A stretch of 64,000 nucleotides of DNA from Mytilus trossulus. Lineage: Eukaryota. The position numbers and the translations under genes are program-made. Positions 7,314 to 46,208 of this stretch are shown here, one piece after another. Where the stretch lies: assembly GCF_036588685.1 (NCBI RefSeq), contig NC_086381.1, positions 12,462,001-12,526,000 on the forward strand, written 5' to 3'. Position 1 is the stretch's first letter. The number at the start of each line of letters is the position of its first letter. Below the pieces are notes generated by a model. The model worked only from the letters and a program-made list of their open reading frames with translations. It was not told the DNA's origin and did no database searches.

Positions 7314-9365
7314 TCACTTTTTATGACTTGCTGCAAAATAGGCATCTAAAATGTCAGCATACACATTATTCATGTCTATTTCCTGTGATAAATCCGATTT
7401 TTCTATAAAATTTTTCATAAAATTAGTACAATTTCCAAACATGACCGTAACACCAACTGGTTTGTATTCGGAGTGGATTTGTATTAAAGCTTTCATCCCA
7501 TTCATGTCAATATAGTTCATAGACGAACAGTCGATAATAATATGCGTAAGGGGTACGACAGGTGTTTCGTTTTCAAGATTTGCTTTTGACATCGAAATTC
7601 TTTCATCACTGCTACAGCTATTTTTGCTCTGATCAACGTTAATTTCAACGTTAAACTCTGGTTGTTTTCGATAGGCTTTCGGATTAAAAGTTGCTTGGTA
7701 TAGTTTTGTTATAAATTGATCAGCTGTAGCAAAGTAAAGAGATGATTCCATTCGGAATATTGCTATTTTCGGGTTACATAATGGAACGTCATGAGTCTTT
7801 TGATCCAGAAGGCGATCTTCCTGCTCAAGTTTTCTAATGGTATACGAAGATGATCTTTGACTTTGCACAACAACTGTTAAAAGACAAAGTAGCACTCCAA
7901 CATACAAAGCGTAAGGAAAATCAATAAGAACACCACACAGTACTGTACCAACAAAAATTACGAAATCATAACGGTTTACTCGCCACAGCATCGGTAGGTC
8001 CTTGAACTGGTATAAGAGATTTTTAATAGCTGCGATGATCATAACTGCAAGAACAGCTTTAGGTAATGATTCAACATATTTTCCAATGAAAAGTATTACA
8101 AGCAATACAAAAACAGCTGAAACCATGCCACTTAATGTTGTCTTTGCTCCCATTGTACTCAAAACAATTGTACGAGGTGGTGCAACGCAAGCTGGAAAGC
8201 AGGAGAAAAAAGACCCACCTAGATTTGAAATACCATATGCGACGAGTTCTTGATTATCGTCAACTGAATATCCGTGTTTCACCTCACAAAGTCGGGCCAT
8301 CGAAATCGTAAGCACAAACACGATTATACCGACGACAGCACTTTGTCCTATAATATCTACAGACACTCGAGGTAACTTCGGAGTTGGCAGTCCAGCAGGT
8401 ATATTTCCTACTACACCTATTCCGAAGTTGTCATGTAATTGTGTATAGGAAGAAATAAATGTTGATAGGACAACCAAAATTAAATCAATTGGTATTGGCA
8501 TTTTCATTTTGTTCTTGTATCTCTCATTTATGACATCTTTTACCAATACGAGTATAATAAGGCATATTATAGAGACTAGGAATGTAGCAACATGAATGTG
8601 TGGAAAAACTTTGAATATTTGAATATATACATATATAAGTTTTCCTGGTTTGTTCACGGGTCGAATTGTTATGCCAAGAGCATTAGGAATTTGGCTGGAA
8701 ATGATATGAATAGCACCGGTTGTGGTAAAAGCTGCAATGAAAGAAGATGACAAATAAGAAGTTATAAAACCCATTCGGCACAACCCCATGATGAACAGCA
8801 ACAATCCAACAATAAATGACGAACCTGCTGCTACTGACGCTTTGTACTCTAAACCTAAATTTGCGATGTCTGAAGAAATTGTTGTCCGATTATCATCCGT
8901 GGAACCGTTTGAAACTGACTTATGACCTGTCAAACCATACTGTTCTAACTGCAACTCTACCATTTCTGCTGTCAAAATAGCAATCACAGCATTTGTTCCG
9001 AGCGATACGTGGTGAGACGTTCCGAAAAGAACATACAGAAGCACTGGAAAAAATGATGTATACAATCCATACGCCGGCGATAATGATGCTAATATTCCCA
9101 ATGCAAGTCCCTGTGGTACATGAAGGCAAGCTACTGATAATCCACTTATTATATCATCAAAGAGGTACACCCGGAATTTGTACTTTCGTAAGACATTTAT
9201 GACTGGAAATAGTGCTAGTAAATATGACCTTAACTTTGAAAAAGTACATTTGTCTTTTATATTCTCCGACAATGACGTAGACGAGTGCGGTGGTCTGCCA
9301 TAAAGTTCATATAATTCAGACTGTGTTTTCATAGATCTGGTTAGCAGTAAAACGTCAGAGGACAT
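7314..9365 (-). CDS. SLC26/SulP anion transporter (prestin/pendrin family), copy 1, single coding exon, 683 aa
   Basis: Uninterrupted ORF with SLC26 motifs: D-x-ISG...PQG, YGLYTSFFP, FGTS-x-H, GFITSYLS, NQELVAYG, and a C-terminal STAS domain (LYFATA, IIDCSSMNYID). Polypyrimidine tract plus AG acceptor at 9415-9414, 48 nt upstream of the ATG. Confidence 0.96.
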   Translation of the reverse strand: MSSDVLLLTRSMKTQSELYELYGRPPHSSTSLSENIKDKCTFSKLRSYLLALFPVINVLRKYKFRVYLFDDIISGLSVACLHVPQGLALGILASLSPAYGLYTSFFPVLLYVLFGTSHHVSLGTNAVIAILTAEMVELQLEQYGLTGHKSVSNGSTDDNRTTISSDIANLGLEYKASVAAGSSFIVGLLLFIMGLCRMGFITSYLSSSFIAAFTTTGAIHIISSQIPNALGITIRPVNKPGKLIYVYIQIFKVFPHIHVATFLVSIICLIILVLVKDVINERYKNKMKMPIPIDLILVVLSTFISSYTQLHDNFGIGVVGNIPAGLPTPKLPRVSVDIIGQSAVVGIIVFVLTISMARLCEVKHGYSVDDNQELVAYGISNLGGSFFSCFPACVAPPRTIVLSTMGAKTTLSGMVSAVFVLLVILFIGKYVESLPKAVLAVMIIAAIKNLLYQFKDLPMLWRVNRYDFVIFVGTVLCGVLIDFPYALYVGVLLCLLTVVVQSQRSSSYTIRKLEQEDRLLDQKTHDVPLCNPKIAIFRMESSLYFATADQFITKLYQATFNPKAYRKQPEFNVEINVDQSKNSCSSDERISMSKANLENETPVVPLTHIIIDCSSMNYIDMNGMKALIQIHSEYKPVGVTVMFGNCTNFMKNFIEKSDLSQEIDMNNVYADILDAYFAASHKK

Positions 9366-10098
9366 ATTTTTCCGACGCCGGTAATCGAATGTGAAAAAGG
9401 TTGAAATTATAACCTAAAAAGATTGAAATAACAAATTAAATTTTTCAATCATAGCGAAACCATAAAAGGGATATATTGAGCTTACGTCAAGCTCTAAATA
9501 GTTATTTCAGAGGCTATACATTGAATTTGTAAATAAATTAAACAGTCTATCAAAGATCTTCAGCTTACATCAACTTTCTTATTTGACAAAATGACACCAT
9601 CAAAAAAATTTGCTAACTGGTTCAACTTATGTTCTGCCATCATGCAAAAACAAACATTACACTGTTTTCACTCTCGCAAACAGACACACGTAAATATTGC
9701 ACTGTTTATCTCATTTGTAAATATGCATCAACACAATATTTAGCTAGAATTTGACTTCAAACTGTTATTGTAATTATTGTCAAAAATGTGTTTAATTATT
9801 CTTTCTATCAATGATCATCATAGATGTATAAACCATATTGTAATCGATTTTGATACAGACATAATACTGTTTTGGTAGAAGTTTGCTATTTTGTAACATT
9901 TAACCATTAACATGCAAGACATCTAAGTGAGTGTGTATGTATTGCGAGCACCGTATAAATAGATATAAAGTTACATTTCTAGCGTATGTAGCTTATTTAA
10001 TTGTGAAAAATGTCGAAGCATATGTGCTTTTTTCGTATGAAATTGTTGAAAACAAACAAATTGAAATAAACATATTTATTACCTACGGAAATGTTTCT

Positions 10099-10235
10099 AC
10101 TTACTTTTTTCGTGTGGTTACATCTTAGTTACATCTCAATGTTTATACACATGCTGCAAAATGAAAATAATTACGTTTTATAACCAGTTGCGAAGCCAAT
10201 AGCATGACAATTTTATAAATAGAATACACTTCCGA
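10099..10235 (-). promoter_or_regulatory. Probable core promoter and 5'UTR exon of SLC26 copy 1
   Basis: On the minus strand: CGGAAGTG (ETS-like), TATAAAA near 10211-10217, then GTAAGT donor at 10104-10099. The block is conserved at 2289-2430, partly at 15334-15430 and partly at ~32765-32802. Confidence 0.55.
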
Positions 10236-11339
10236 GAGTTAAAATCAAAATTGATTTTTTTAGTAAATTCACAATTTATAAGTGATAAGCATGAAACAGA
10301 TTTTTTAAGGTAAAAAAATAAAAGAAATTACGCAAATAAAAAAAAAAGGGGGAAGTAATGAATAAAATGAAATATCACTGTTTTGCATCGATTGGATATA
10401 GGTGAATAAATATGATAAAACATATACAAGCACCACTATTGTAAGTTCAGAGGCAAAAATACACCAAATATGAAAATGGCTATATTGTCAAAAAGAAAAT
10501 TAAATTTCTCAAAAAGTATACAGAAAAACTTTCCTTTTTAGATATTGGTACTTACTAAGTTAAAAATGTTTCGGTAATGTGTTCCCAGGGGTAAAGCTAT
10601 TAGAATATTAAAATACTGAAAAGTCTTTAAACAAATTTCAAAAGGTAATCAGTTATTAGTATCTTATTAAAAATGTGTGACACATGAATAAAATGCTCCA
10701 CTGTGAAAATCAACACTATGTCACGGATTTCATTTTTTTTTTGGTGTAAGCAATGCATTTCAAGTCTTACGGAATTGTAAGAACATTATTTATAGATTAT
10801 CATCCACCTTCACTAATATGCCTCTTCACTAAAGAAATTGATTTTAAAAATTAGATTAAAGCTCATATATTGCATTGCGCTACCTTTAACCAGAATAAAT
10901 TCAGTATAGACAGATACAAAATATAGACGACTTAAAATTTTGTTATTGAAAAGAAGTGATGCAATCAGTTTTCATATTCCCATCTTGTCATTTTTCAACA
11001 GAATAAACAAATACCTCCGATTTAAAACGTGATGGTACCCAATATGCAAATCGCACATATTTTGACAGTTTTTTTCACCTTCATTTTTTTATGATCCAGA
11101 CAAAAGTTTCCGATCAGAGTTCATTTAGTAAATGTATCCTTATTACTATTGAGTTATACCAATTTTAATGTTGAATCCATATTGAATCATAGAAAAAAAT
11201 GCATCCATGCTTAGATGTATATTCTTAAAAGTTGAATAACAGATGTTTTGTTCCATTTCAACAAGTATTTAGAACAATTTGACATAAGTTCATGTTTACT
11301 ATCCATTTTATATGAAATGGATGCTTTTTACAAATTTGA

Positions 11340-11920
11340 TTTGCTCATTTTTAAAAGAGGACTTTTTGCTTTCGAACTGTTTTGATTTAAGCATATGTCA
11401 AATAGCTCTTCAACTGTTCCGTTTCTTAGACATCCGTGCATTTAAAATATTCGGCTTTTAGCGTTCATGATGAAGTTAAATCCAGAAAAGCGCTCATGGC
11501 GCATGAATTTATAAACTGTTGTTTTCATTTTTTCTATATCACTGAGTCGACACCGTTGATTGCGGATTACCAGTCCCCGAGAGTACAATCAGATCAGTAG
11601 TCAGAACTTCTATTGTGACTTAATTGATAACAACCCTTTCTACAATTGTCTGTTTATAAATGTAGAGTCTGAGATTATAGATAAAGTAAAAAATTGTATG
11701 TAGACGATTTCACTATTTCATAAAGACTTTTTTGTCATATTGCTCTTTAAATATTTCGGTTCCTATATATCTGTGGCTTTCAAATAATCGGTGACCGTTC
11801 CTAGTAAAGGGTATTCCGGAAAAGCGGTAAAAACGCATAGAATGTATAACTGTTTATATTTTTTGACGACACATACGTCTGATGTACTAAGTTATTAACT
11901 TGGTATCTTTCATGATAGTT
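11340..11920 (+). mobile_element. Old, decayed retrozyme array of a third hammerhead family (~335-bp spacing)
   Basis: gcgttc-ATGATGA-agttaaatcca-GAAA-agcgct at ~11461, second relic at ~11795, shared cagtccccgagagta...cagtagtcag block at ~11570. Related relics at 4380-4710 and 18320-18420. Confidence 0.55.
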
Positions 11921-12432
11921 TTACTGATTCAAATGGCTGATGGCCGTAATGGCATTCCGGGGTAATGTTTATACAGACATTTCTACCAACGTGACGTGTT
12001 TAACTGATAACAGAACGTATTTTGTAAGACTACGAGAATATTACAGAGTGCAAAATAACATTCCGTATCGCGTGTTATATATACGAATATCTTCAATAAA
12101 TGTTAATGAAAATAATGTTTAAGAACATAGAAAAGTTATATGAAAATGTTAGTCATGAGAAACGTATATATATTAATTTAATGAAAAATCAAAAATAATA
12201 AAATTTGTTTAATTTTGGAGTTAAAAGCAGATATCTGTCGTTTGTGCTTCTTTGTAAAATATTTGTTTGTTTTTATAGTCATAAAGATTATAACACAATG
12301 TTGACTGCTGTATCCCTGTTTGTGACATTTTTAGTTATTTTGTCTGTTTGTTTTTTTAACCCATTATTGTCAAAATAATGGACTTAGATGTGAATGACAA
12401 ACCATTGAGAGGTTTATCTAGCTAATTACCAT

Positions 12433-12558
12433 ACTTTTGATGTGTTTGGTACAACTTTTTTGGAATTTTGGATCCTCAATGCTCTTCAACTTTGTACTTG
12501 TTTGGCTTTATAAATATTTTGATATGATCGTCACTGATGAGTCTTATGCAGACGAAAC
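12433..12558 (+). mobile_element. Retrozyme fragment truncated within the hammerhead
   Basis: cgtcaCTGATGAgtcttatgcagacGAAAc, then unrelated sequence. Confidence 0.7.
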
Positions 12559-15049
12559 TTTCTTCAGTACACCATGCCATTCCACAGTTGAAAGTTTTGC
12601 CAAAATGAAGTCTAATTGGTGTCTATGATCGTTTCCTGATTTCAGGTAGTTGTGAAGCCGAGGGTGAATGGAATTACCTAGTATAAGTGTGTTTAAAGGC
12701 ATGCCTCGATTAAGATATTTTATAAAATTGAGTTTCACCAAATTTCTGTTCGTTCTTCTTTCAGCAGCTATTCAAGGCAACATATTAAAACATGTGCTGG
12801 AAGTAGCACCCCCGTATCAATAACCATATACCTAAAATTTTCAATTCTGCACATAAGAGTGTTTATTTTTGGCCGTTTAATCTATTTATTTATTTTCGAT
12901 TCTTATTTTTTCGTATTTTATTATATTTCAGTGATTTCTGGTTTTCTAATTTAATGCGCATAGAGGTATTTGCAGTATGAGTATTGCCCCTGAAGGTTCA
13001 GAAAAAAGCAATAATTTGTGTTCATAACATGTAAATTTGCATTAGTGTTTTTTTTTATTAGTAATTGCATGAAGCGGATTACTATTTAAATGATAGTCGA
13101 TCAGAGCTCACGTTTTTTTTCTGTTACTATGTACATTTGTACAAATAAAATTAACTAACATATATATAGTTCGTTAATTTTTGTATATTGTATCATTCAA
13201 TTCAACGAGGAGTCAGTTCAATATTAACACTAGTTGATTGCTTATGTGATTTTTTTTAATTTAAAAAATATAGTAAATTAATTGAAATAGTGTCAATAAC
13301 CATAAAAAAAACGAAACATCGATGTCTTTAAAACAAGCCAAATAACTAGCAAGGCTAACACAATTATACAACTTTAGAAATTAAGCAAAAAAGCATTATT
13401 GTTTTACAAAATAGTTCCGCTTTTTCTTGTTTCACGAGAAAAGGGAATAAATAATGCCTAAACAGAAAATAATTAGCTACACGATAATCTGAGCTTTGAT
13501 CTGTCATCAAAGTTATTGCATCATGTTAGATTAAAGTTCACAAGTCAGAGTGAGCAGTTTAGAATTGACACACTTCAATAATGGATCATCTCAAAAATAT
13601 GAATTTTATACTAAGTAGACCAATACCAGCTTTAATAATATTGCATCCAAAACATTTTTTTGTCAAAAATCTCCTTCAGTAAACAATTGATAATAATCTT
13701 GTATCGAGTGTATAATTTGCGTTGAAAATTGTCACTGGTGATCACAGTAGCAATAAATAAACGGAAAATCCATTCTGGAATATTCGTATCATAACATTAT
13801 GAAACTATCAATCAATCAATAAACCATTAAATCCAAGAAACGAACAAGCCCATTCAATTGATTAATGAACGCCAATTGCAGCCAAAAATGATCAATTTTT
13901 TTTTTTACGCAAATAGGCAGATTAGTTTTATTTTGACCTTCCCAAATCACTGCATTTTTTCGTTAAAACACAAGCGTTTTATCTTGCATTGACATGCGTA
14001 CAATATTGTTGGATGCTTTTCATCAGAATGACATATTTTTTAAAAATAAGAAATTGCATGATTTGTGATGTTTCTCAAATTTGTAGAGAACGCGTTTTTT
14101 CGATACTGTATAAATTCATTATTTATTGCAAACAAATAGTGAAAAAGTAACAATTGAAAAATCAAATCCTACCTCTTGTTCCATTCATGAAAATATCATG
14201 AACTCGTAGGGTGTAAAGTTTTAGCCACAAAATTGTGTAAAAAAAAAATGAAAAAAACATCATTTGATTGAAAAAAAATCATACTTCAAATTTGACTTGG
14301 CCTTTTAGTATAATATTTGAAGAGTAAACTAAAGACAAATCATTTCATAACTGTTAATCCACAAACAAGAGTAATAGTATAATTTCTAAAAGACTTTTTA
14401 ACTTCAGATCTAGAGTTGCCGTCCATGTTTTCATAAACAATATTTATTGTTACGTAATAAAAATTGCGTATGCGTACAGAATGCACAAGGACAAATTTGA
14501 ATAGGTAAACAATTAAAGTAGTAGCAATAATTACGTCATCAAATCAAGTTGCGTAATATTTAATAACAATGACCAGTCCATATCAAATAAAGTGTTAAGG
14601 GTTAATTGGGAAGGGGCGACGATATTTTTTTTAACACAATATCTTGTTAGTACTATTAAATATTCACCAACCACACTTGTTGTGAATTATTCAGACACCT
14701 GTATGTATGTATTGGCATCTCTTATAAGGGTATTTAAAGCAAAAGAAAGTTTGGGATTCAAAATCAACAAAATATTGGACTTTATACAGAATATTTACCT
14801 TCTCAAAGCATTGATTTATTAACATATAATACAGGGATACATGAAAATATTTCAAAACATTTCATTCTGGTTTATTTAGAGGTATTACCATGAAATGCGT
14901 TTGAGTGAACAATGGTAGAGCAAACATTGAATCATCTCACAAAATCCTTCAACAGACTATTTGATTTTTTGTATTTCTAAGAAGCAATATTTAAAAAGTT
15001 ATTTTTATGCCGAGTTAATCAATAATTGAATTAATACTAGATTCTCGAC

Positions 15050-16230: not shown

Positions 16231-16430
16231 ACTAAGTATTTTCATATCTCAGGCATAGATAACCTTGGCAGTATTTAGCACTTTTTAGAATTTTGGGTCA
16301 TCAATGCTCTTCAACTTTGTACTTGTTTGACTTTTTTTACTATTTTGATCTCAGTGTCACTGGTGAGTCTTATGTCGACGAAACGCACGTATGGTGTATT
16401 AAATTATAAGCCTGGTACCTTTGATAATTA
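16231..16430 (+). mobile_element. Partial retrozyme, second family; degenerate hammerhead at 16354-16397
   Basis: caatgctcttcaactttgtacttg...gtgtcaCTGGTGAgtcttatgtcgacGAAAcgcacgta; core A6 mutated. Confidence 0.7.
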
Positions 16431-25756: not shown

Positions 25757-27841
25757 TTACTTTCTATGAGTTGCTGCAAAATAAGCATCTAAAATGTCAG
25801 AATACACATTTTGTATATCTACTGTCTCTGATAAATCCGATTTCTCCGTGAACGTTTTCATGAAATTAGTACAGTTTCCAAACATTACAGTAACCCCAAC
25901 ATATTTGTATTCGGAGTTGATCTGTATTAAAGCCTTCATACCATTCATGTCGATATAGTTCATAGACGAACAGTCGATAATAATATGCGTGAGGGGTACG
26001 ACGGGTATTTCGTTTTCATTGTTTGTTTTTGACAGCGACATTCTTTCATCGTTGTTACCGTTATTTTCGCTTTGATTTATGTTTATTTCAACATTATTTT
26101 CTAAATGTTTGTCTTGTTGTTTTGGAAAGGCTTTTGGATTAAATGTTGCTTTGTACAATTCTTTTACAAATTGATCAGCAGTAGCAAAATAAAGAGATGA
26201 TTCCATTCTAAATATTGCAATTTTTGAATTACATAATGGAATATCATGAGTCTTTTGCTCCAGAAGACGATCCTCTTGCTCAACTTTTCTAATGGTGTAC
26301 GAAGATGAATTCTGACTTTGCACGACAACTGTTAAAAGACAAAGTAGCACTCCAACATACAGGGCGTAAGGGAAATCAATTAGAACACCACACAATACTG
26401 TTCCAACAAAGATAACAAAATCATAACGATTTACTCGCCACAGTTTTGGTAGTTCCTTGAACTGGTATAATAGATTTTTAACAGCTACGATGATCATTAC
26501 TGCAAGTACAGCTTTAGGAGCTGATTCTAAATATTTTCCTATGAACATTATTACAAGCAAGACAAAAATAGCTGATACTATTCCATTCAATGTTGTCTTT
26601 GCACCCATTGTACTTAAGATAACTGTACGTGGTGGTGCAACGCAAGCTGGAAAGCAGGAGAAAAAAGAGCCACCTAAATTTGCAATACCATATGCGACGA
26701 GTTCTTGATTGTCGTCAACTGAATATCCGTGTTTCACCTCACAGAGTCGGGCCATTGAAATCGTAAGCACAAACACAATGAAACCGACAACAACACTATG
26801 TCCTAGTATATCTACCGACACTCGAGGTAGCTCCGGCGTTGGTAGACCAGGAGGTATTTCTCCTACAACACCAATATCGAAGGTGTCGTGTAACTTTGCA
26901 AAATGTGAAATAACTGTTGCTGTTACAACTAAAATTATATCGATTGGTATTGGCATTTTCATTTTGTTTTTGAATCTCTCATTAATGACATCTTTTATCA
27001 ATACAAGTATTATTAAGCATATAACGGAGACTATCAATGTAGCAACATGAATCTTCGGAAATGCTTTGAATATTTCAATATATACATATATCAGTTTTCC
27101 TGGTTTGTTAACAGGTGGAATTTTTATGCCAAGAGCATTAGGGATTTGGCTGGAAATGATATGAATAGCACCGGTTGTGGTAAAAGCCGCAATGAAAGAA
27201 GATGACAGATAAGAAGTAATGAACCCCATTCGGCACAACCCCATGATGAACAGCAGTAATCCAACGATAAAAGACGAACCTGCTGCTACAGACACTTTGT
27301 ACTTTAACACGTCATTATCCATTTCCGGTGAAACTGTTGTTAGGTTACCAACCGTGGAACCGTTAACAGCAGAGTGATGACCAGGCAAATCATACTGTTC
27401 TAACCGTGACTCTACAAGCTCTGCTGTAAAAATTGCAATCACAGCATTTGTTCCGAAAGAAACGTGTTGCGATGTTCCGAAAATCACATACAGGAGAACA
27501 GGAAAAAAGGACGTATACAATCCATAGGCCGGTGATAATGATGCTAATATACCAAATGCAAGTCCTTGTGGAAAATGAAGACAAGCTACAGATAAGCCAC
27601 TTATCAAATCATCTAAGATGTATTTCCTGATCTTATACGTTCTTATTACGTTTATTATTGGGAAAAGTGTTAGTAAATATGCACATAACTTGGAAAGGGT
27701 ACATTTTTTCATGATATTTTCTGAAAATGACTTCGATGGGCTCTTTGGTTTGCCATAAAACTCGTACAATTCAGACTGTGTTTTACGAGATCTTGAAAGC
27801 TGTAAAATATCAGACGACATATCTCCGTTGTTGATACTCAT
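25757..27841 (-). CDS. SLC26/SulP anion transporter, copy 2 (close paralog of copy 1), single coding exon, 694 aa
   Basis: Same motifs, colinear and highly similar to 7314-9365. Homologous acceptor (ttgttatttctatattttAG) at 27878-27877. 3' flank 25390-25560 resembles 7000-7150. Confidence 0.96.
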   Translation of the reverse strand: MSINNGDMSSDILQLSRSRKTQSELYEFYGKPKSPSKSFSENIMKKCTLSKLCAYLLTLFPIINVIRTYKIRKYILDDLISGLSVACLHFPQGLAFGILASLSPAYGLYTSFFPVLLYVIFGTSQHVSFGTNAVIAIFTAELVESRLEQYDLPGHHSAVNGSTVGNLTTVSPEMDNDVLKYKVSVAAGSSFIVGLLLFIMGLCRMGFITSYLSSSFIAAFTTTGAIHIISSQIPNALGIKIPPVNKPGKLIYVYIEIFKAFPKIHVATLIVSVICLIILVLIKDVINERFKNKMKMPIPIDIILVVTATVISHFAKLHDTFDIGVVGEIPPGLPTPELPRVSVDILGHSVVVGFIVFVLTISMARLCEVKHGYSVDDNQELVAYGIANLGGSFFSCFPACVAPPRTVILSTMGAKTTLNGIVSAIFVLLVIMFIGKYLESAPKAVLAVMIIVAVKNLLYQFKELPKLWRVNRYDFVIFVGTVLCGVLIDFPYALYVGVLLCLLTVVVQSQNSSSYTIRKVEQEDRLLEQKTHDIPLCNSKIAIFRMESSLYFATADQFVKELYKATFNPKAFPKQQDKHLENNVEININQSENNGNNDERMSLSKTNNENEIPVVPLTHIIIDCSSMNYIDMNGMKALIQINSEYKYVGVTVMFGNCTNFMKTFTEKSDLSETVDIQNVYSDILDAYFAATHRK

Positions 27842-29783
27842 GATAATTAGAACAGTAAACCAGGATAAATCATTACCTAAAATATAGAAATAACAAATTA
27901 TTCTTCACTGAATATATAGCTTCACCATATAAGGTAATCGAATTTCATGATGTTCTATTCGTATAACACAATCGAAATGTATTCAGGGCATAACTCTTAT
28001 CATACCTATATGCACATCTTCAATTTATCATCTTACCATGAATAATTAAAATTTAATCAGCATTTGATAAACCATGTAAGAAAAGATGCGGCAAAAAAGA
28101 ACATACTGAATACTAGTAGTAGTATGTTCTAAGGTAAAGAGAATAACTCTCATATTTGTTAACAACGCAGTATATCCTTCTTCTTCATGTATGGATCTTA
28201 CAATTTTCAAAGTTCTATATACATTGACGAATAATGTAAACATGTAGAAATAAAACAAACACTAGCTGTCAAACTCTTTTTTTTACCGATTTCATATTTG
28301 ATTATTAACATTCTTAAACGTATATCCAAATGATAAAAAAGTTTTAAATAATCAATAAACAATGTATGAGCTCGATCATATGTATCAACATTTCATGTGA
28401 ATTTAAGTGTAGAGGCCATTAATTAACTCTCGAGGTCAACCCCGAAGACTGCCGACGGTAATATAACCCGGTATATACATATTGTATTTTTCTAGGTATG
28501 TTTGATTTCATATTATACGTTGAAAATATATGTTATTCATCGTTTTTATCTGTAAAATTATGAATTTTTGTGGATCGAATCGAATCAGTCAATCAAATGG
28601 TTTATCCTTGTTTCGCTTTTAATGTCGAGGTCGAATTATTCACCTGCAATTGATTAATTCATCAGTCATGCTTCTTATCTTATTTTGACAAAATTGAACT
28701 AAAAAGGCTGCTAAAAGCGAATTCCTATTTCACTATTTCACTTTCATTATTGATTGATATATTAATTGTCTTATATACGATACCAGAAAGAAATGTTGTT
28801 GATTTTAAGCGCAATGCGTATGGAGAATTATTATGCGAATATCTTATAAATTCGAACTGTTGTATTTTAAATGGAAGAAAAGGTGTCAAAAATAATGATA
28901 CTTATATATCTCAGCTAGGATCTTCTGTAGTGGATTATTGTCTTATTCCATACGAATTACTTGATATATTTGAGCAATGTGACGTCATAACTATGTCGTA
29001 ATTAATCGAAAAACATGATATATTTGAGTATGTTGATCCATCAGTGTCAAAACCTGATCACTCGATGCTTTTGTGGAATGTAAATATAAAGAAATGTGTG
29101 TCGGAAGCATCTAATGATAATGGAAATAATAGTGAATATAATAAGTTTAATGTGAAAAATATTCCAAATTCGTTCTTAACGGATCATTTACGTGATATTG
29201 AAGAGTTAATTTTATCCTTGGAATTGAATAATGTCAACCAAAATAACTTGGATATAGTTTACCAAAATTTTGTTAATCTTTTGAAAAACGAAATGTCGGA
29301 AAAGATGGATTACAAAGTTATAAAAGTGTCATTAAGCTCGAATAATAAAAAACGTCGGATGAAAAACCGTGGTGGTCGGATCATCTCACAAATTTATGGA
29401 ATGATGTATGCGCTATGGAAAAGGAGATGCTGAAAAGTAAATCAGATACTAGGAAACGTCAATGTAGACAAGAATTCATATGTAATCGGAAATTGTTCGA
29501 CCGTGAAACACAACGTTTGAAACGGCGTAACTGGAGAGACCAATTACTAGTTAATAAAATTGACAATTTGGAATCAACAAATCAAACTGAATTTTGGAAA
29601 AAGATCGGACGGGTCGGAGTAGGCGAAGAGAAAAGGAAAGCTATACCTATGTCTGTGCAACTACCGGATGGTAGTATTTCACATGATCGAGACGCTGTAC
29701 TGAATGAATGGAAACGATCTTTCTGTAGTTTGTTGAACCCAGAAGGTAGTATTGATAATAAAATTAACGGTACCAATTTTCTT

Positions 29784-29827
29784 GCACCAGATGCGCATTT
29801 CGACAATACATGTCTCTTCAGTGATGC
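29784..29827 (-). ncRNA. Minimal type I hammerhead ribozyme (intact)
   Basis: GCAUCA CUGAAGA GACA-UGUAU-UGUC GAAA U-GCGC-A UC^ UGGUGC: 6-bp stem I, CUGANGA and GAAA cores, 4-bp stem II, minimal palindromic stem III, AUC cleavage triplet. Confidence 0.92.
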
Positions 29828-30133
29828 TCGTGGCCAAAATATTTGAAATCCAAAGCTTATATAAAAGATGAAGAGCTATAATCCAAAATGTCCAAAAAGT
29901 ATAGCCAAATCCGTGAAAGGAATCAGAGCTTTGCATGAGGGAGATACATTCCTCAATTTATAATAATTTCTAATATTTTTTAACAGCAAATTTTAATAAC
30001 ACAAAAAATCCGTATTTTCATGCCAGTACCGAAGTACTGGCTACTGGGCTGGTGATACCCTCGGGGACTAAAAGTCCACCAGCAGAGGCATCGACACAGT
30101 GGTAGTAATAAAATTAACGGTACCAATTTTCTT

Positions 30134-30175
30134 GCACCAGATGCGCATTTCGACAATACATGTCTCTTCAGTGAT
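30134..30175 (-). ncRNA. Minimal type I hammerhead ribozyme, second copy (stem I shortened by the insertion boundary)
   Basis: Core identical to 29784-29827; stem I is AUCA/UGGU plus a U-G pair. Confidence 0.85.
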
Positions 30176-33100
30176 AACCTTCCAACGGACACAAGTACAG
30201 ATAATGGTGCTACGATGAATTATGACATTACTCATGAGGAAGTTAAACGAGCAGTGATCAGTTTGAAAGTTAACAAAGCTGTTGGTGTAGATGAAATCCC
30301 ATCGGAAGTCCCCAAGAATCCGTGTTTGTTGAACTTCCTACTAAGTTTGTTAAATTAATGTTTCTTCAGTGGTACAATTCCAACTTTCTGGCGGAAAGGA
30401 ATTATTAATCCAATACCTAAGTCGTCGACGTCGAATCCAAAAGACCCAATGTGTTACCGCGGTTTAACACTTGTTCCTGTTTGCTACAAGCTGTACTGTC
30501 ATATATTGAATAACCGATTGCTCGAATGGGAGGAGGAAAATAATATTTTAGATGATTGTCAAAATGGTTTCCGAAAGGGACGGAGTACAATTGATCATAT
30601 AAAGTCATTATCGTCAATTATTGAAACAAGAAAGCTAAAACGTTTGTCGACTTTCACAGCTTTTATAGACTTCCGAAATGCGTATGATGGGATAGACCGT
30701 AATTTGTTATGTCAGAAATTGCTTGATATTGGAATATGCAGGAATATGTATAATGCTATCGTGTCGTTATGTAAGTCAGTAGAATGCTGTGTTCGGATAA
30801 ATGGACAATTAACGGACTGGTTCAATGTTCAGTGTGGTCTAAAACAAGGTTGTTTGCTTTCACCATTACTTTTTAATGTGTATGTGAACGGTCTTGTTAC
30901 GTATATATGTTCATTAAATGCTGGAATAAACATTGACGAGGAAAATGTGTCGATTCTACTGTACGCTGACGACCTTGTATTGCTAGCTGGCTCGGAATCA
31001 GACTTACAGGTTTTGTTACATGGACTTCAGCTCTGGTGTGCGGAGAATGAGATGACAATAAATCATAACAAGTCAAACGTTGTTCATTTCCGACCAAATT
31101 CGACCCCAAGGACAATAAACAGTTTTAAATGTGGCCACCTTGACATAAATGTGGTGGAGAAATATACATACCTAGGTTTAGTGTAAACAGAGCATTTGGA
31201 CTATCAAATTATGGCAAAACACGTAGCAGCATCAGACAACCGTGCCTTGGGACTAGTGATATCTAAATATAAATATTTTGGAGAACTACCGTTTGATTCT
31301 TTCACAAAATTATATGACTCGATTGTTTGGAGTACAATCAGCTACGGAGCGGCAGTGTGGGGAGATAGAACATTTTCATGTATAAATTCGATACAAAATA
31401 AGGCAATTCGTTTTTATATGGGGGTCGGACGGTATACAACTAAAGTAGCAGTGAATGGAGATTCAGCCTGGAAACCACCTTGTGTAAGGCAGTGGCGAAC
31501 TGTTATAAATCATTGGAATCGTTTAAGGTATATGAACACTGATCGACAAAATAAAAGAATCCATAACTGGGCGGAACATAGTTTTCGGCGGTATAAAGCA
31601 TGTAAAAATTCAAATTATAGACTTTATCAGCAGTTTGAATTGTGTAATATTAGTGACTGGTATAATGACACGAACATTCACAAAATCTCCTGCTCAACGT
31701 AGAGCATATTCGCAATTCAGATGTGGGGTTGCACCCATACGAATCGAAACCGGGCGTTTCGAACATTTACCAATGCATGAACGGACTTGCTTTATGTGTG
31801 AAAGTAAAACTGAAACTGAGGAACATGTACTAATTGAATGTCCGATTTATGACGATTTAAGGAACGAACTTTATGAATATATAAACAGTGTAGATGAGAA
31901 CTTTAACATGTTAACGAACCGTGAGAAACTGTCTTTTGTGTTGGGATGTCAAAACGTTAATGTTATTTACAAATGTGCCAAAACCTGCAACTCTATTTTA
32001 GACAGAAGGAGACGTTTTTTTTTATATCGATAACATTTTTTTAGACTGTAAAGTTATTTAAATTTGTTTTAGAAATTTTAATAGTACATGTACATAGTTT
32101 TATAAAGTCCTTTTGTTGTTTGATGAAATTTTACTTTTTGTCTCTCATAATTCTTTTAAGAATAGCATTAATATATATTTATGTTTTTATGATATATGTA
32201 AATATTGTATTGTGTATATTAGTGGTGAGACGTTAATAAACTATCTATCTATGTCATCTATCTATCTATCTTATATATTTCGTAGCCGCTTTAAAAGTAG
32301 ATGTATGCAATTAGAATTGAATTGTGCATACATAAATATTGCACTGTGTTTACTCGGTATTTACTCGGTATTATATCGTTTATTTTGACTTGCAATTCAA
32401 TGGCAAAAGTAGAGAAAACATGTTTGCATTTATATTTGTTTTTATAAAAAAAAAATGATAGATGCAAAAACAGTTTTCGACGACGTGAACACTGGTGTGT
32501 TATCGAATTATACACCATCAACACTTACCCACCGAAATATTTTATAACACGATAGTCACATGGACTGTAAACCAAGTTAACATAAAGACCCAATGCCCAA
32601 AAAATTTGTTGATAAAGTTTGACACGTACACGATCATAAAGAAGTCAAAGAACTTACTATGTTTTAAGTTGTTGGCTCCATTTTCGGCACCTTTGAGTAA
32701 ACTTCTTCCTTAAACAAATATATAGTTTGTTTTTATTATCCAGAGCTTCCGAACCCATATCTGGTTTACAATTTAATCTTGAGATAAAGAATACACTTCC
32801 GGCAGTATAAAGATCAATATTTTAAATATAGCAACAAATGAATAGTGATGAAAGAGAGATTATATGTAATTCTAGCATGTATAGATTAAAATTGAATTAA
32901 ATGCGTGAATTAAATCAATTTTTTATGAGTGTATCTTAGGTTCTTAAAATTTAAAGCTCCGCAAACGTTACGTAAATTCTGTCAAATACTATATATTAAA
33001 AAGTTTCTTTCAAAAAAACTTTAAAGTTGTAGAAAAGTGACCTTTACGTCCTCATTGTAGCGATATTCCACAAGGTTAAGAATAGAATACTAAAAATAAA

Positions 33101-37777: not shown

Positions 37778-38177
37778 AAATATTATACACGTTGGGTTTT
37801 TTTTCCAAAATATTTCTAAATTAAAAACATGAATAAAAATGAAACATACATTTTTAATTGTTCTTAATATAATAAAACCGTTATAATGAATACAGTACAT
37901 ATGATCTAAAAACTTACTTTAAAGAAAAATGAATAAATTTAACTGTAGTAATACATGTAGTTTATTTCAAATTATTTCAAACTTACCTAGAATACAATAA
38001 GTGTTCGAATTGAACACAAATTGTAATCCTAGTCTTTTATAGACTTTATTGTAATTACTGATTATCAAATTATCTTTGATGCCACGCCCACTTCTAATAA
38101 ACTTTCGAACAATGGACGTAACAAACAGATGTTCACGATTATTTTTTAATTTATATATAATCTTATGTGTGTCCAAT

Positions 38178-40345
38178 AATGTTGAATATATTCATAGTAA
38201 TGAAAATATGTATGATGATTATCTTGATAGCTTTATATCATATGAAGAAGTGTATAATGTACTGTTGTCTTCAAAAAATGGTAAATCGCCTGGCTGTGAT
38301 GAAATTACGGTTGAACTTTATAAGAATCAAACTGCATTGTTAGCTTTAACTCGAATTTTTAATATTTGCTTTGACTCTGGTAAGATACCTGCTTTATGGT
38401 CGAAAGGTATCATTAATCCGATTCCAAAGAGCTCTACTGCAGATCCAAGAGACCCTATGGCATACCGTGGAATAACTTTGGCTCCTGTATCTTATAAACT
38501 TTACTGTGGTGTATTAAACTCTCGTCTTACCGTTAAACTTGATGAACTTAATTTTCTTCATGATGAACAAAATGGTTTCAGAAAGGGACGAAATACTATA
38601 GACCATATTTCTACTTTGACTACTGTCATAGAAACACGTAAATTGCGTAAATTATCAACATTTGTAGCATTTATAGACTTTAAAAAAGCTTACGACTGGA
38701 TAAACAGGGATTTGCTTTTTGGTAAATTGGAAAATTTAGGTATAAGTAGTAAAATGTTAAATGCTATTTTTTCACTTTATAGAAATGTATATTCATGTGT
38801 AAAAGTAAATGGTAATTTTACTGACTGGTTTGAGGTTAAATGTGGTTTGAAACAAGGGTGTATTCTGTCTACAATTTTGTTTAACATTTTTATTAATGAC
38901 CTTGTAGATGAAGTTAAAAAAATAGATATTGGAGTAAAAATTGATGATGAAAAAATTTGTGTACTACTTTATGCAGATGATCTTGTATTTATAACAGAAA
39001 ATGAGAAAGATTTACAAAAAATGTTGGATACTTTAAATATATGGTGTTGTAAAAATGATTTAGTTGTAAATCTAGAGAAATCAAAAATTGTACATTTCAG
39101 AACTAAGTCTATACCAAAGACAAATTTTACTTTTGTACTTAATAATAATGATATGGAAATTGTTCCTAGTTATACTTATCTAGGTTTACTGTTGTCAGAA
39201 TTTTTAGACTACAATTGTATGGCTAAGGCAGTAGCTAAATCTGCAAGTAGGTCATTAGGTTTATTAATAGCTAAATGTAAAGCTAATGGAGGTTTTCAAT
39301 TTGATACATTTACAAAACTTTTTGATACACTTGTTATGTCTGTAATTGAATACGGTGCGTCAATTTGGGGTCACCAGGATTTTTCTTGTATTAATGCTGT
39401 AAAAAATAGAGCAATGAGATTTTTTATGGGTGTGGGTAAATACACCCCTAACTTAGCCTTATATGGAGATATGGGTTGGATGCCCAGTATTATATCTCAG
39501 TGGACATGTATTTTTAGATTATGGTCGAGACTTACTAAAATGTCTCATTGTAGAGTTAATAAAAAGGTTTTCTTATGGGGCAATAGATGCTGTAATAGTA
39601 AATTTAAAAATTGGAATTAAAGAGTAAATGTGAAATTTAAAGAAATGGATATGGAGTTTTTATGTAATACTGATTTTTCTATTGATAAAAATACAATTAA
39701 ACAAATTGAAAAGGAAAATTTTTGTAGATATAAAGAGAAGTGGTACTCTGACTTAATGTACAATGAAAGAAGTAAATTGCGAACGTATAGAATGTTTAAG
39801 CAATGTTTTAATAGAGAAAAATATTTATGTATTAATATGCCTGGAAAATATAAGAGTGCATATGCTAAATTTAGATGTGGTGTTGCACCTCTGAGAATAG
39901 AAACTGGCCGATATGAAGGCATTATGGTTGACAATAGATTATGTTTTAATGAGCAATGTAAGAAAAATAACATTATTGAAGATGAGAAACATGTCTTAAT
40001 TAACTGCCCAGTATATGCAGATTTACGAGCTATTTTATTTAGACATGCTAGCTCTTTTAATTGTGATTTTGTTAATTTGTCTGATGATGATAAATTCAAA
40101 TTTTTATTCACTGATGAAAATGTGTGTTACTTTTTAGCCAAAATCTGCTATGATGTATTATTAAAAAGAAAAGGTATTATATATAATTGTAGATAATAAT
40201 GTGTTTTGTAGAAATTTTATAGTCTCTCATAACTCTTTTTAGAGTGGCTCATGTTGTTTTAAATATTACTGTAATTTTATAAATGTATAAATGTATGTCA
40301 ATTTTGAGGTGAGACTCTAATAAAGTATTTGTCTTTGTCTTGTCT
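38178..40345 (+). mobile_element. Young 5'-truncated LINE of a related family (RT plus C-terminal domain, one in-frame stop)
   Basis: ORFs 38076-39620 and 39630-40196 are in the same frame, separated by one TAA. Motifs GKSPGCD, QNGFRKGRNT, FIDFKKAYD, LLYADD, IETGRY...EDEKHVLINCP. AATAAA plus (tcttg)n tail. Sits inside an LTR. Confidence 0.93.
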
Positions 40346-40829: not shown

Positions 40830-41663
40830 TCATATAAATCAGATTTTGTTGTTGCCGAAACAGTGTCATATCAAATTCTTGCATGATCTTCCAAATGGAA
40901 AAGGAAAGATTCTTCACTCTTTTGTTTCGATAAATCATTACAAGAACAGTATTGTCTAAAAGTATTCAACCACGTTTCAGGGTTTTGTGAATTGTCACCC
41001 TTAAATTTTTCAATTTTTAAAATAGAAGACATATTAAATATTTTCATAGGAGGTATTCTTGTCCTACCTGCTGAAATAGCTGCTGTTGCGGTTGATGTTG
41101 TTGTTCTTGGTGGTGCAGATGTCGTTGAAACTGCTATAGTAGATGCGGTTGTTGATGCTGTCATAACTTCTATTAATGCCGTTGCAGTGTTGGATGAAAA
41201 ATGAGACGGTATCTGTAAAGACAGGCAATGAGAGTTTATTAACCGCCAATGGAGTTCCAAGATAAGGTGGTTGCACTGGTCCAGGTGTTCGTGTCCCTGC
41301 GGAAATCGTCAGTAAGGCTTGCGGAATTTTAGGTCGAACCAAACTTGTTGGTTGTAAAGTCCTTATTGTGGTTGATACGATGGACGGTATAAACGGGTTG
41401 TAAACAAGAACAGGTCCAGTTGGTTGGTCACAACTATATTGAGGAGGTAGTGTCCACGGATCTTGGACAAAAGGTATTGTTGTGTCTTCACGTTCAGGTA
41501 ATTTATGTTCGAACTGATGTTTAACTACCAATTCCTCCTCTTCGGGCAAAATGTCCAGTTGGTAAAACGTAGTGTCTAACTTATGATGTTCTGCCTCTTT
41601 GTTGTAATTAAGAGGTGTTTTACCAGGCTTTGTAGGTTTTTCTGTTGCTTTAAACATCCTCAA
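40830..41663 (-). pseudogene. Frameshifted, truncated retrotransposon gag
   Basis: Pro/Thr-rich N-terminus, then IEKFKGDNSQNPETWLNTFRQYC...FHLEDHARI*YD, a retrotransposon Gag capsid-like motif with W replaced by a stop. Confidence 0.75.
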
Positions 41664-43970
41664 ACCATTCTATTGTGTCAATTGTTATCGTGTTTTGAAA
41701 CCCTAGCTAAAGTATTGACGTTTGCCACAATGAAGGGGGAAACAAACTCACAATCAACTGTAGAGAGGTCGGAATCAGCCGAACAGGAAAAGCTAGAATA
41801 CAATAATTGTTCGAATTGTTTAATGAAGAACAAATTTAAAACATTACAATATTAGATAATATTTGACACATTGTTTTTTCCAAAGTAATTGTAAATTGAA
41901 AACATTAATAAAAATGAAACATACATTTTTAAATTGTTGTTTTATGATAAAACAGTAATAAAGAATACAGTACTTTAATATGATCTAAAAACTTTCTTTA
42001 CTGAAAAATAAATAAATTTAACTATTAGAAATTATCTGAAAAATAAATAGTTTATTTCAAATTATTTCAAACTTACCTAGAATACAATAAGTGTTCCAAT
42101 TGAACGCAAATTGTAAACCTAGTCTTTTATAGACTTTATTGTAATTACGGATTATCAAATTATCTTTGAAGCCACGACCACTACTGATAAACTTTCGAAT
42201 CATGGACGTAACAAACAGATGTTTACGATTATTGTTTAATTATACGTCCAATACTTGACCTTCGAATAAACAGAATCTAATGTAGCATCTGCTATTTGTC
42301 CCAGAATACATAATTACATTTTCATTATGATATAAATTGTCATAAATTTGTTTATTTTTAACTTGACCTGACTAATAAAATATTTAACAGTCTTTGTGGA
42401 ATTTAGAAACTCAATTTCCATTCTTAATAACAGCATATTGATACCAATAATCTATAATAATATCAGGAATAGTTAGATGGATACTTTACACCATAGTTTG
42501 TCCAAAAGTCATGTCAACTCTACTTTTATAATTTAAAGCATCAACAATCTATACTTTATATTGAACGATTGCAATGTAAAACACAATTTTACATTACAAT
42601 TTAACCAATAGTCGTTAATTTCTATATCATTTAGTCTCTTGTGGAGAGTTGTCTCGTTGGCAATCATACCATATCTTTCAAAATAGTTTGAAAACAATGT
42701 TAAATGCAACTTACAAAAGAGGAGGCAGTCTTGCAATTGTATGATATTATTAGTGTCATTTAAGCTAGATGATATAAACCGTTTAGCATATTTCCGAACA
42801 ACACAACAAAGCTCTTTTCTGTTTAATTTGCGTGTACGTATATAAAATAGTTTACCCCAAAATAATATATATTAATTAAGTAGGGTTTTTTTTATTAAAA
42901 AAATAGATGAAACAACAAAAAATCCTTATTGCTTACAGACTAACAGAACAACAGAGAGGCGATTTATAATTGATGTGTAGTTGACGTTTTTTTTTAACTC
43001 AGCATGTATATCGTAGAATGATCGTGTACATTTCATTTTAAACCATTTACCCTTTTTTAGTATATAATTGCAGGATATTTATGGTTCTGCGGTACCTGTG
43101 AAAATTGTACATATCAAAATTCTAAACCAGTTATTGTGTGAGAGCGTATTACAGACACCTGCCTAAACTATCATGTATACCGGGCTCAGTGATTTCCAGA
43201 GAATGACACCTGCTTTAACTATCATGTATTTAGAGCTTATTTAGACCAAAACACAATTTCATCACGGTCGTCACCTTTGTCATAGTATACCTTGTATTGA
43301 GTTTCAATATCTATAATAACGTATATGATATAAAGTTTCATTGTTAGACCTAATTAACTTAAGTATCATAAAAGAAATGTCTTGATTGCATAGTATACCT
43401 TTCGAGAATATAGAACTCAATTAGCATTACCAACAAATCCATATTTATTTCGTTGTTCAATTGAATTCAGAAGGTTTCCATTCTGTTTCTATGGAAACCG
43501 TTTTTTTCTCTTTGAAATATCGTATATCTCTTTTCCCTATGTATAATTATCCTGAAAGCTCGTGACATTTTCTCAAACCTACCTGTGATTTAAGGGTTAA
43601 AATTCCGTCATTATTCAATAAAAGACAAGCAAATTACAGCATCAAAGGTAAGGATTTTCATTTTTCCAGGCTAAAATCTTATCTCAAACTATAAACAAAA
43701 CAGTTTTTAAGTTCTTTATTAGTGATGATTTATTCAATTTTTTAATATTCACAAAGTAAAGAAACTACATCATAAATACAAGATTAATAAAGAACGAAGC
43801 TGAACACACTGTAAAATAGAAAGTTTAGATTCTTTTTCGATATTCAGTATTAATCTTTTTGCAATTTTTTACTTTCATCTAAATATAACAATTTAAAAGT
43901 AAAGACAGCTGTTTATTTTTTTCTTATTAATTTGAAAATTGGATCATTTTTTTGTAATCCATTTCTTCAG

Positions 43971-46208
43971 ATGCTGATGGACGAAACTGATCAAATATCT
44001 TTAAAAAGAAGATTTTATTCGACAGAGAAATTGGACGAAACATATCGCAGAGTAAATCCACAGAGGAGGTCTTTTTTGCAAAATTTCAAATCTCAATGTT
44101 ATTGTTCCAATAAACGGGCATGGAATATTCTAACAACCGTCCTTCCGTTTTTGAAATTTACTGCAGAATACAAAGTTAGTAATATAGTATGTGATATCAT
44201 CAGTGGATTAACAGTCACAATGCTGCATATAGCACAAGGTATAAGCTTCGCCATGTTGGCCGGTCTCAAACCGCAATACGGGTTATATACATCAATATTT
44301 CCAGTTGCAATATACTTTATCTTTGGAACATCTCAGCACGTTTCCTTTGGGTCAAACGCAGTGTTGGCTATTTTAACCAGAAATGTAATACAGAGAGAAG
44401 TTGAACTACAGAGAGAAGGTTATTATTTGAACACTACAACTTCTGCCTATGCCAGACAGTTTCCTATAAATGCAAGTGAAGGTTACATGTCCTTTACAAC
44501 AGAGCCCACTATGATTTCATCAGGGGCAATGACTGCAAATACGTCATACCAACCTGTTAATTACACTACCACTACAAAGGTAATACCACCAACAGATGAC
44601 GATGACTATTCTAGGCTAAAAGGAGAAATCGGTGTTATTGCTTGTTTGCTGACTGGTATTTGGTTGACAGGATTTGGAATCTTACGATTGGGATGGATTT
44701 CAAAGTATTTGTCAACTAGTTTTATTGGCGGTTTCACAACTGCATTGGCCATTCATATTGCATCATTAGAAATTCCAACCATGCTTGGTATACAAGTTTT
44801 ACCTCGTTTTGGTGCAGGAAGATTAGTATATCTGTATGTTGACCTATTTACAGAAATTAAGATGACCATTCTTGGTGACTTCACAATTGCCTTGGTTACT
44901 CTGGTTACCATCTTGACATATAGAATTATAACAAGTAAATACAAAATACATCTAAAATTCCCTATACCTTTAGAACTGCTTATTGTGGCAATCGGTATTG
45001 TTGCTTGTTATTTTGGGAAACTGGAGAGCAATTACGACATTACGGTACTTGGCGAGGTACCAGTCGGATTTCCAATACCTTCAGTGCCTACATTACAACG
45101 AAGTTCTAACATGATTTCTGATTGCTTAATTATGGCGCTTTTAATATTTATCATTTCCGTTTCAACAGTAAGAACTGCAGGGGTAAAAGAAAAACAGTAT
45201 ACGGACTACAACCAAGAACTGATAGCATATGGGCTCTGTCATGTTTTTTCTTCTTTCTTTTCTTGTTTTCCTCAAGCCACTTCACCACCAAGAACAATGA
45301 CTCTCAAACACTTGCGCGCTAAGACAACTTTTCACGCGATAGTAACTATAATCATAATGGTTTTAGTCATTCTATGGATTGGACGTGTTTTTGAATCCGT
45401 ACCTATGGCAATGATAGGAGCCATCGTTGTGGCATCGATGATAGATTTGTTTGCTCAGTTCTCTAAATTACCAAAGTACTGGAAAGTTAACAGGTTTGAT
45501 TTCTTCACGTGGATGATCACTTTTCTGGTATCAATATTTGCTGATTTAGATTATGGATCAGTTACTGGGGTTGTTTTTTCGTTCTTATCTGTTGTCATCC
45601 AACACCAAATTGCAAAAGGGCGCACAATTGGGTTTTCCGATAAAGAAAGTGTAACTTTTGATGAAAAGAGAAGAATTCACGTAAAAGAATTTCCATCGGT
45701 TAAAGTATTTATGTTTGATGCACCAATTATTTTTGCAAATGCTGAAATATTCAAAGACAAACTCTATCGACATGTTCCTAAACCTAAAATTAAGACGGAA
45801 GCTGCTCGTTTGCCATCTAGTGATTCTGTTGGGAACAGAACCAATGAAAGCGACTACTGTGATAACTTAAACGTAAATGGTCACGTGCATGTAAAGAATG
45901 ACAAAATTTGTTCAGTGGCCAAGTTGAAACACGTGGTTATCGATTGTCAAAAGGTGAATTATGTTGATATTTCTGGAGTAGATGTTCTTACTGAAGTAAT
46001 AAAAGAATACAAGGAAGTTGAAATCAATGTTTATTTTGTTAACTGCTCGACGAGAGTCAGAGATGTACTACAAGCTGCAGGTTTCTTCAAAACATTCCCG
46101 AAAGATCACATTTTCTACGATGTATTTGATGCCATATTTGCAATTGACAATTCTTTTCTAGGTACCCCGCTTAAAATTTCAATGGTCGAAGAGATAACAA
46201 AGCTATGA
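43971..46208 (+). CDS. SLC26/SulP anion transporter, copy 3 (divergent paralog), single coding exon, 745 aa
   Basis: Motifs DIISG, HIAQG, YGLYTSIFP, FGTSQH, NQELIAYG and STAS (IDCQKVNYVDISG). ATG at 43971 directly follows the acceptor tttcttcAG; candidate upstream UTR-exon donor GTAAGG at 43648. Ends in ITKL, a class I PDZ-binding motif. Confidence 0.95.
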   Translation: MLMDETDQISLKRRFYSTEKLDETYRRVNPQRRSFLQNFKSQCYCSNKRAWNILTTVLPFLKFTAEYKVSNIVCDIISGLTVTMLHIAQGISFAMLAGLKPQYGLYTSIFPVAIYFIFGTSQHVSFGSNAVLAILTRNVIQREVELQREGYYLNTTTSAYARQFPINASEGYMSFTTEPTMISSGAMTANTSYQPVNYTTTTKVIPPTDDDDYSRLKGEIGVIACLLTGIWLTGFGILRLGWISKYLSTSFIGGFTTALAIHIASLEIPTMLGIQVLPRFGAGRLVYLYVDLFTEIKMTILGDFTIALVTLVTILTYRIITSKYKIHLKFPIPLELLIVAIGIVACYFGKLESNYDITVLGEVPVGFPIPSVPTLQRSSNMISDCLIMALLIFIISVSTVRTAGVKEKQYTDYNQELIAYGLCHVFSSFFSCFPQATSPPRTMTLKHLRAKTTFHAIVTIIIMVLVILWIGRVFESVPMAMIGAIVVASMIDLFAQFSKLPKYWKVNRFDFFTWMITFLVSIFADLDYGSVTGVVFSFLSVVIQHQIAKGRTIGFSDKESVTFDEKRRIHVKEFPSVKVFMFDAPIIFANAEIFKDKLYRHVPKPKIKTEAARLPSSDSVGNRTNESDYCDNLNVNGHVHVKNDKICSVAKLKHVVIDCQKVNYVDISGVDVLTEVIKEYKEVEINVYFVNCSTRVRDVLQAAGFFKTFPKDHIFYDVFDAIFAIDNSFLGTPLKISMVEEITKL

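Follow-up and report, generated by a model that had tools for sequence, protein, structure and literature searches.

Three intronless SLC26 genes of the mussel Mytilus trossulus in a lophotrochozoan branch with a putatively altered anion pocket

The stretch of DNA analysed here (the window) covers 64,000 nucleotides of the Mytilus trossulus genome (NC_086381.1, positions 12,462,001 to 12,526,000; 31% GC). The best named protein matches are from Mytilus, and two neighbouring proteins of this genome are identical to ones labelled M. trossulus. Three of the window's long open reading frames are whole intronless coding sequences of the SLC26 family, each with a Sulfate_transp domain followed by a STAS domain above the Pfam cut-offs. 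In window coordinates, copy 1 is a single coding exon at 7314..9413 on the minus strand (first ATG 9365, about 683 residues), copy 2 one at 25757..27904, also on the minus strand (first ATG 27841, 694 residues), and copy 3 one at 43854..46208 on the plus strand (first ATG 43971, about 745 residues). The original prediction held that all three share a remodelled anion-binding pocket, and the motifs behind it are present. The third transmembrane segment (TM3) carries GTNA in copies 1 and 2 (8988..8999 and 27443..27454, minus) and GSNA in copy 3 (44349..44360, plus), with Asn at the position of prestin F137 and pendrin F141. TM10 carries APPRT in copies 1 and 2 (8169..8183 and 26624..26638, minus) and SPPRT in copy 3 (45282..45296, plus), with Pro-Pro at prestin L397-S398, while the TM1 Gln, the TM10 Arg and NQEL (copy 1 included) are kept. 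The TM1 motif is QGLAF in copy 2, QGISF in copy 3 and QGLAL in copy 1 (9099..9113, minus), which thus retains Q97 and does have the predicted Leu at F101. The three paralogs are not as divergent as had been said: identity between copies 1 and 2 is 79%, and it is just copy 3 that stands apart (32% to each). A further APPRT match at 41116-41102 was rejected as chance, since its frame (40871-41308, minus) is Thr-rich and non-SLC26; by impression its end may be gag-like.

The assignment of these residues to the pocket is borne out both by alignment and by a structural model. Residue numbers were counted along the printed phmmer alignment to pig pendrin (8sgw), which is without gaps across TM3 and TM10. 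Relative to pendrin the copies show F141>N, L407>P, S408>P, Y105>F (Leu in copy 1) and N457>A, and leave A406, R409, Q101 and E384 unchanged, so the combination of a TM1 Gln with a TM10 Arg or Lys that marks SLC26/SulP proteins is there. Proline at the TM10 site was found in none of the six solved sequences that have a printed TM10 alignment. Copy 2 was modelled with AlphaFold2 from a 120-row alignment (predicted local distance difference test score 87). The model has the inverted-repeat fold of 14 helices in which TM3 and TM10 are half-helices, and in the overlay on prestin that had been proposed as a check it matches 7v75 with Z 53.2 and a root-mean-square deviation of 2.6 over 582 residues. 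In this model the TM10 helix starts from the first Pro and the TM3 helix from one residue past Asn; in a canonical oyster paralog, modelled as a control, TM10 starts from the matching Leu and TM3 one residue past Phe. The helix starts correspond, so that fold and register are retained and the prolines are the first two positions of the TM10 helix. Proline has no amide hydrogen and is accepted in the first turn of a helix. The predicted replacement of GPFA and SLSRS stands for F>N and LS>PP only: neither Thr at P136, found in Xenopus prestin (GTFA), nor Ala at S396, found in pendrin (A406), is unusual, and neither counts as a real change.

What these positions do in known members can be gathered from published work. 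The S1 site of pendrin is formed by the backbone hydrogens of L407 and S408, the S408 hydroxyl and the aromatic edge of F141, and both F141A and S408A reduce transport (PMC10771415). Bicarbonate bonds to the backbone nitrogens of both S408 and L407 in mouse pendrin, where Y105F lowers Cl-/HCO3- exchange, and S408P is a variant listed in a deafness database (PMC10213058). Sulfate in AtSULTR4;1 is held by the amides of Ala153, Phe391 and Ser392 and by the hydroxyls of Tyr116 and Ser392 (PMC8298490), and in prestin Cl- is confined by F137, S396A abolishes the motor signal and S398A removes salicylate sensitivity (PMC9584906). With Pro-Pro and Asn at the S1 positions, all four S1 contacts are absent in copies 1-3: two free TM10 amides with a Ser, Ala or Gly are replaced by Pro-Pro at both places, and the canonical aromatic of TM3 by Asn. 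The earlier argument that the prolines remove backbone NH and Ser OH contacts is thereby supported from three sides (PMC10771415, PMC10213058, PMC8298490). Nothing on prolines was found in the passages of PMC13263692 and PMC11494103, and the borate transporter BOR1, tried as a precedent for a pocket proline, was not confirmed in two papers.

The proline pair is far from a peculiarity of this mussel. Three homologue searches and one representative search, each represented by its best 120-150 matches and biased by their Pro-type queries, gave 466 aligned proteins, 465 of them scorable; 204 have Pro-Pro at the TM10 site, 16 have one proline and 245 none. Among molluscs, named Pro-bearing proteins are known here from bivalves, gastropods and a chiton, and a cuttlefish protein falls in one Pro-type cluster; outside them they belong to annelids (Capitella, Owenia, Lamellibrachia, Paralvinella) and Lingula. 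The branch thus spans four mollusc classes, annelids and Lingula. A TM10 proline is absent in the named proteins of vertebrates, sea star, acorn worm, spider, rotifer and bryozoan, which does not imply phylum-wide absence, and likewise in the canonical Lingula and mollusc paralogs among the proteins examined. The TM3 position co-varies with the prolines: Phe occurs in none of 216 Pro-bearing proteins versus 198 of 244 others, being replaced by Asn in 109, Met in 66, Ser in 19, Asp in 10 and other residues in 12. Annelids and Lingula have GTMA, with Met in place of the Asn; some canonical mollusc paralogs also lack the aromatic (Val). Ranked by how well they separate the groups, the top three of 475 alignment columns are the two prolines, by definition, and in third place the TM3 position, independently. 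Phe at the TM1 Tyr position is found in 54/73 Pro-bearing proteins versus 13/62 others, and within the Pro-bearing set the Arg (72/73), the Glu of NQE (71/73) and the TM1 Gln (60/73) are kept. Within the Pro group the two prolines are the 16th and 27th most conserved of the 475 columns, a partly circular measure as the group is defined by them.

Other positions differ as well. At residue 477 of copy 2 (prestin G450, TM12, gate domain) most annelid members have Pro, many molluscs Asn, Asp or Glu, and canonical proteins Gly or Ser; at TM5 residue 237 of copy 2 the states are Phe versus Leu. A clam sub-branch (P0066, P0070, P0087, P0092 and kin) has Asp at TM3 together with SPPRN, which adds an acid to the pocket, as in the yeast protein Vsb1.

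Phylogeny points to a single origin of the prolines. The first tree (LG+G4) was built from 135 of 357 proteins, obtained by thinning at 55% identity plus 30 chosen rows, of which 73 are Pro-bearing and 62 are not; the TM3, TM10 and TM12 motif columns were removed. Pro-bearing and other proteins were split on one branch (Shimodaira-Hasegawa-like approximate likelihood ratio 97), with one label change versus about 45 when labels were shuffled. In a second, bootstrapped tree of 60 chosen rows, under the same model and again with motif columns removed, support of the Pro branch was 99/98; it is nested among lophotrochozoan paralogs, away from Xenopus prestin, and does not group with vertebrate SLC26A5. 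The root is approximate, because the five-vertebrate outgroup does not form one side of a branch. Mollusc members group together (100/99) and divide into a GTSA/APPRS arm and a G[TS]NA/APPRT arm. An earlier FastTree tree with motif columns included (260 of 274 rows) also separated the groups, with low support on the canonical side (0.118). On sequence grounds, then, the three genes are placed in an SLC26 branch shared by molluscs, annelids and brachiopods. The same change was not made repeatedly in three divergent paralogs, as the wording of the original prediction might suggest; the tree argues for inheritance from one old event. The proline pair is older and more widespread than the Asn, which is confined to one mollusc sub-branch, and the branch as a whole reaches further, and further back, than the original prediction had seen. 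Since Asn is found only in molluscs and Met in annelids and Lingula, the proline pair and the loss of Phe likely came first and the Asn later.

In the mussel's own genome a Pfam search found at least 10 loci with an unbroken domain, nine of them on the contig of the window (C9). All 10 unbroken loci have at least one TM10 proline and six have Pro-Pro; six intron-containing loci are canonical at TM10 (SVSRS, SVARS, SLSRS twice, SLSRT and SFSR), so of the SLC26 loci, at least 16 in number, the Pro type accounts for 10. The intronless copies would be consistent with retroposition of an ancestor and later tandem duplication, intron state having been scored in the Mytilus genome only. The ratio of nonsynonymous to synonymous substitution (dN/dS) is 0.19-0.26, about 0.24, in the four measurable pairs, and synonymous divergence is saturated between copy 3 and the locus L003. 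One supported branch (97; 99/98) and purifying selection at this level agree with the predicted conserved subfamily under selection.

Several of these loci, given here in coordinates of their own and not of the window, deserve a separate remark. L001 (3894-6026, minus) is a tandem neighbour just beyond the window, 79% identical to copy 1, in which Leu replaces the near-invariant TM1 Gln and is also found at F101. L002 (3006-5080, minus) is a Pro-branch copy with GPART whose frame is split in STAS, a pseudogene or an assembly error. L006 (2298-4724, minus) is divergent: it carries SPRRS, its TM1 Gln is replaced by His, and NQEL reads NQES. L003 and L004 are recent duplicates, 97% identical, that differ at the first proline (APPRT versus AAPRT).

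Copy 2 is transcribed and spliced, as in all four runs there are contigs in which 27876 is followed directly by 32658, the GT-AG intron between them being absent. The runs carry no RNA record, and transcription is read from this joint. The 5' leader intron measures 4781 nt (27877..32657, minus) and the 5' untranslated exon extends over 32658..32802 (minus), to the limit of the contigs. For copy 3 there is one 1656-nt contig in run X2 with no joint, which was not counted as expression. Acceptor-like sequence lies just 5' of the ATG in all three copies (9415, 27877 and 43970), with use shown for copy 2. The window also holds two decayed non-LTR (long terminal repeat) retroelement copies on the plus strand, at 28654-32388, within the leader intron of copy 2, and at 38055-40196. 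RVT_1 was recognised in a 521-residue frame of these elements. A 33-bp tandem repeat array lies at 578-1320.

It appears likely that these proteins either carry a different anion or bind their anion far more weakly, and the original proposal of altered substrate or gating remains a hypothesis. The explanation we put first, giving it an even chance, is that the copies are still elevator-type anion carriers in which the substrate is likely held on the side chains of Arg, Gln and Asn instead of on backbone amides, with changed selectivity and poor bicarbonate exchange. As proline lacks the NH and its ring would occupy the place of the anion, the canonical S1 site could not form, while the TM3 amide, both helix dipoles, the Arg and the Gln would remain. 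Loss of Phe would open room on the TM3 side and make the pocket roomier and less polar; Arg, Gln and the TM3 amide would likely hold the cargo, joined in molluscs by the Asn, and such a carrier would be poor at chloride/bicarbonate exchange and at sulfate. The cargo could, as a guess, be a larger monovalent anion such as an organic carboxylate, a sulfonate or a soft anion (nitrate, iodide). Canonical paralogs persist beside the Pro-type copies in the same genome, as would be expected if the latter had taken a new job. A broader version is held only tentatively. In it, an unrecognised subfamily that arose no later than molluscs, annelids and brachiopods diverged, and that multiplied in tandem without introns, has lost the backbone-amide site of its family and acquired either a new cargo or, like prestin, a sensory function in mantle epithelia.

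A number of observations weigh against this explanation. Four of the 10 own copies have a single proline only (GPART, AAPRT, SPRRS, TPSRT), and two proteins inside the branch (P0109 and P0186, both dropped by thinning) have neither. Loss of the TM12 Asn was rejected as a marker of the branch, Ala being found there also in 37/62 canonical proteins. The copy 2 model gives secondary structure and confidence, without pocket geometry or ligand, and no transport assay or structure of any Pro-branch member was found in the literature searched. Pendrin transport survives removal of one of its two sites (PMC10771415) and pendrin Y105F retains Cl-/I- exchange (PMC10213058), so compensation is possible; function of SLC26A4, SLC26A5 and SLC26A9 is described as not set by a few local residues (10.1101/2023.12.10.570988), and the AtBOR1 mutant P362G is neutral (PMC8192573), which means that a proline near the site need not matter.

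Compensation is the core of one alternative, in which the copies are ordinary Cl-/HCO3-/SO4 2- exchangers whose Asn amide, TM3 amide and Arg make up for the lost contacts, low affinity being tolerable in seawater. Arg, Gln and Glu are indeed retained, one pendrin site is enough for some transport (PMC10771415), and SLC26 transcripts, not assigned to the Pro branch, have been tied to mussel shell repair and giant-clam mantle. We nevertheless regard it as rather unlikely: bicarbonate and sulfate bind the two lost amides, the Met of annelids and brachiopods (66/216) cannot replace an amide, and the SLC26 that mussel larvae induce when carbon is low is SLC26A11-like (PMC6662379), a type whose locus in this genome (L009) is canonical. 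Because both anions bind those amides, a bicarbonate or sulfate role in shell formation, offered speculatively in the original prediction, is structurally the least favoured. A giant-clam preprint proposes SLC26 supply of bicarbonate, sulfate and nitrate, with no assays in the passages concerned (10.1101/2025.11.20.689417), and a Mytilisepta atlas yielded no SLC26 terms. Another possibility, unlikely in our view, is that the copies work in the manner of SLC4A11, either conducting without coupling or carrying some non-classical solute (H+/OH-, NH3, boric or silicic acid). The pocket proline of that protein, P723, is one we take to be equivalent to prestin S398. It is conserved only in its subfamily, being absent from the SLC4 proteins that carry bicarbonate, and P723A weakens the current (PMC10547724); Vsb1 shows that the pocket of an SLC26 protein can be adapted to cargo other than anions (PMC13160679). 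However, SLC4A11 (E675) and Vsb1 (D223, E278) rely on acidic pocket residues; in the mussel proteins an Arg follows the prolines and no TM8 Glu is seen in the aligned stretch, in place of the Pro, His and essential TM8 Glu of SLC4A11. Vsb1 is without Arg, which here is near-invariant with the TM1 Gln kept, and in SLC26A9 it is loss of the Arg, not of the amides, that favours uncoupled Cl- current (10.1101/2023.12.10.570988).

It is quite unlikely that the copies do not transport and instead sense voltage or tension, as mammalian prestin does, with Pro-Pro pre-folding TM10 independently of anion in ciliated mantle cells. Anion binding folds the frayed TM3 and TM10 starts in prestin (PMC10699807), and abalone prestin1 is mantle-restricted and rises after vibration, in a paper whose relevant passages do not discuss pocket residues (PMC13544226). 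Its primers translate to AIHIAT and PPFTQTAF; among the 465 proteins every match of the AIHIAT-type pattern (35/35) and of the PPFTQTAF-type pattern (11/11) is a Pro-bearing protein, the latter in the GTSA/APPRS arm only, which suggests that prestin1 may be a Pro-branch member of that other sub-branch. This assignment, however, rests on peptides of 6-8 residues and points to the mussel's own copy L005 rather than to copies 1-3; a third pattern, VKD[CVI], is not specific (34 Pro-bearing, 12 others), the prestin2 peptides have no match among the 465 proteins, the vibration response is a change of mRNA only, and sensing by prestin requires a negative charge beside the Arg (PMC10699807), which Pro-Pro does not provide. 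Drift in decaying or relaxed duplicates, finally, has little left to it: the split STAS frame of L002 and the missing NQEL of L006 are of the kind it predicts, but Pro-Pro-Arg is kept in three phyla, dN/dS is about 0.24 and copy 2 gives a spliced transcript, so that this account is already largely refuted and very improbable.

If the broader version, with its new cargo or sensory role, is true, many molluscan "prestin" and "sulfate transporter" genes in shell and sensory studies would be misnamed by function. Pro-type loci are labelled prestin-like, sulfate transporter-like and the like, and studies of shell, symbiosis and mantle interpret SLC26 genes in terms of bicarbonate, sulfate or sensing. 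The literature searched, which was mostly outside subscription journals, neither describes nor assays a proline-type subfamily of SLC26. Substrate choice in SLC26 is itself an open question, and the SULTR4;1 paper sees, in the passages concerned, no clear residue pattern (PMC8298490). The branch can be regarded as a natural experiment, in which the most constant contacts have been removed and the fold kept.

Compared with known systems, the copies share with pendrin and prestin the 14-helix domain and STAS (Z 48-53), the TM1 Gln, the TM10 Arg, the Glu of NQE and the register of the TM3 and TM10 helix starts, and differ in having Pro, Pro and Asn for Leu407, Ser408 and Phe141 and Phe or Leu for Tyr105. 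Identity with Xenopus prestin is about 27-32%, and prestin-like names do not reflect orthology. Nearest on the tree, with weak support (80/86), are the canonical lophotrochozoan paralogs (GTFA/SLSRS, GTVA/SVSRS), which occur in the same genomes and often lack the TM12 Asn too, but have no TM10 proline and in this genome contain introns at 6/6 loci, whereas the Pro-bearing ones are unbroken at 10/10. SLC4A11 (BTR1) belongs to the same fold superfamily (Z 27.8) and likewise combines a subfamily-specific pocket proline with an atypical substrate (PMC10547724), although it is of another family and has one proline with His and an essential Glu instead of two prolines with Arg. Vsb1, also of the SLC26/SulP family, likewise has a rebuilt pocket, and its cargo has changed; it has gained acidic residues, lost the Arg and carries cationic amino acids (PMC13160679), while the pocket of the proline subfamily stays positive.

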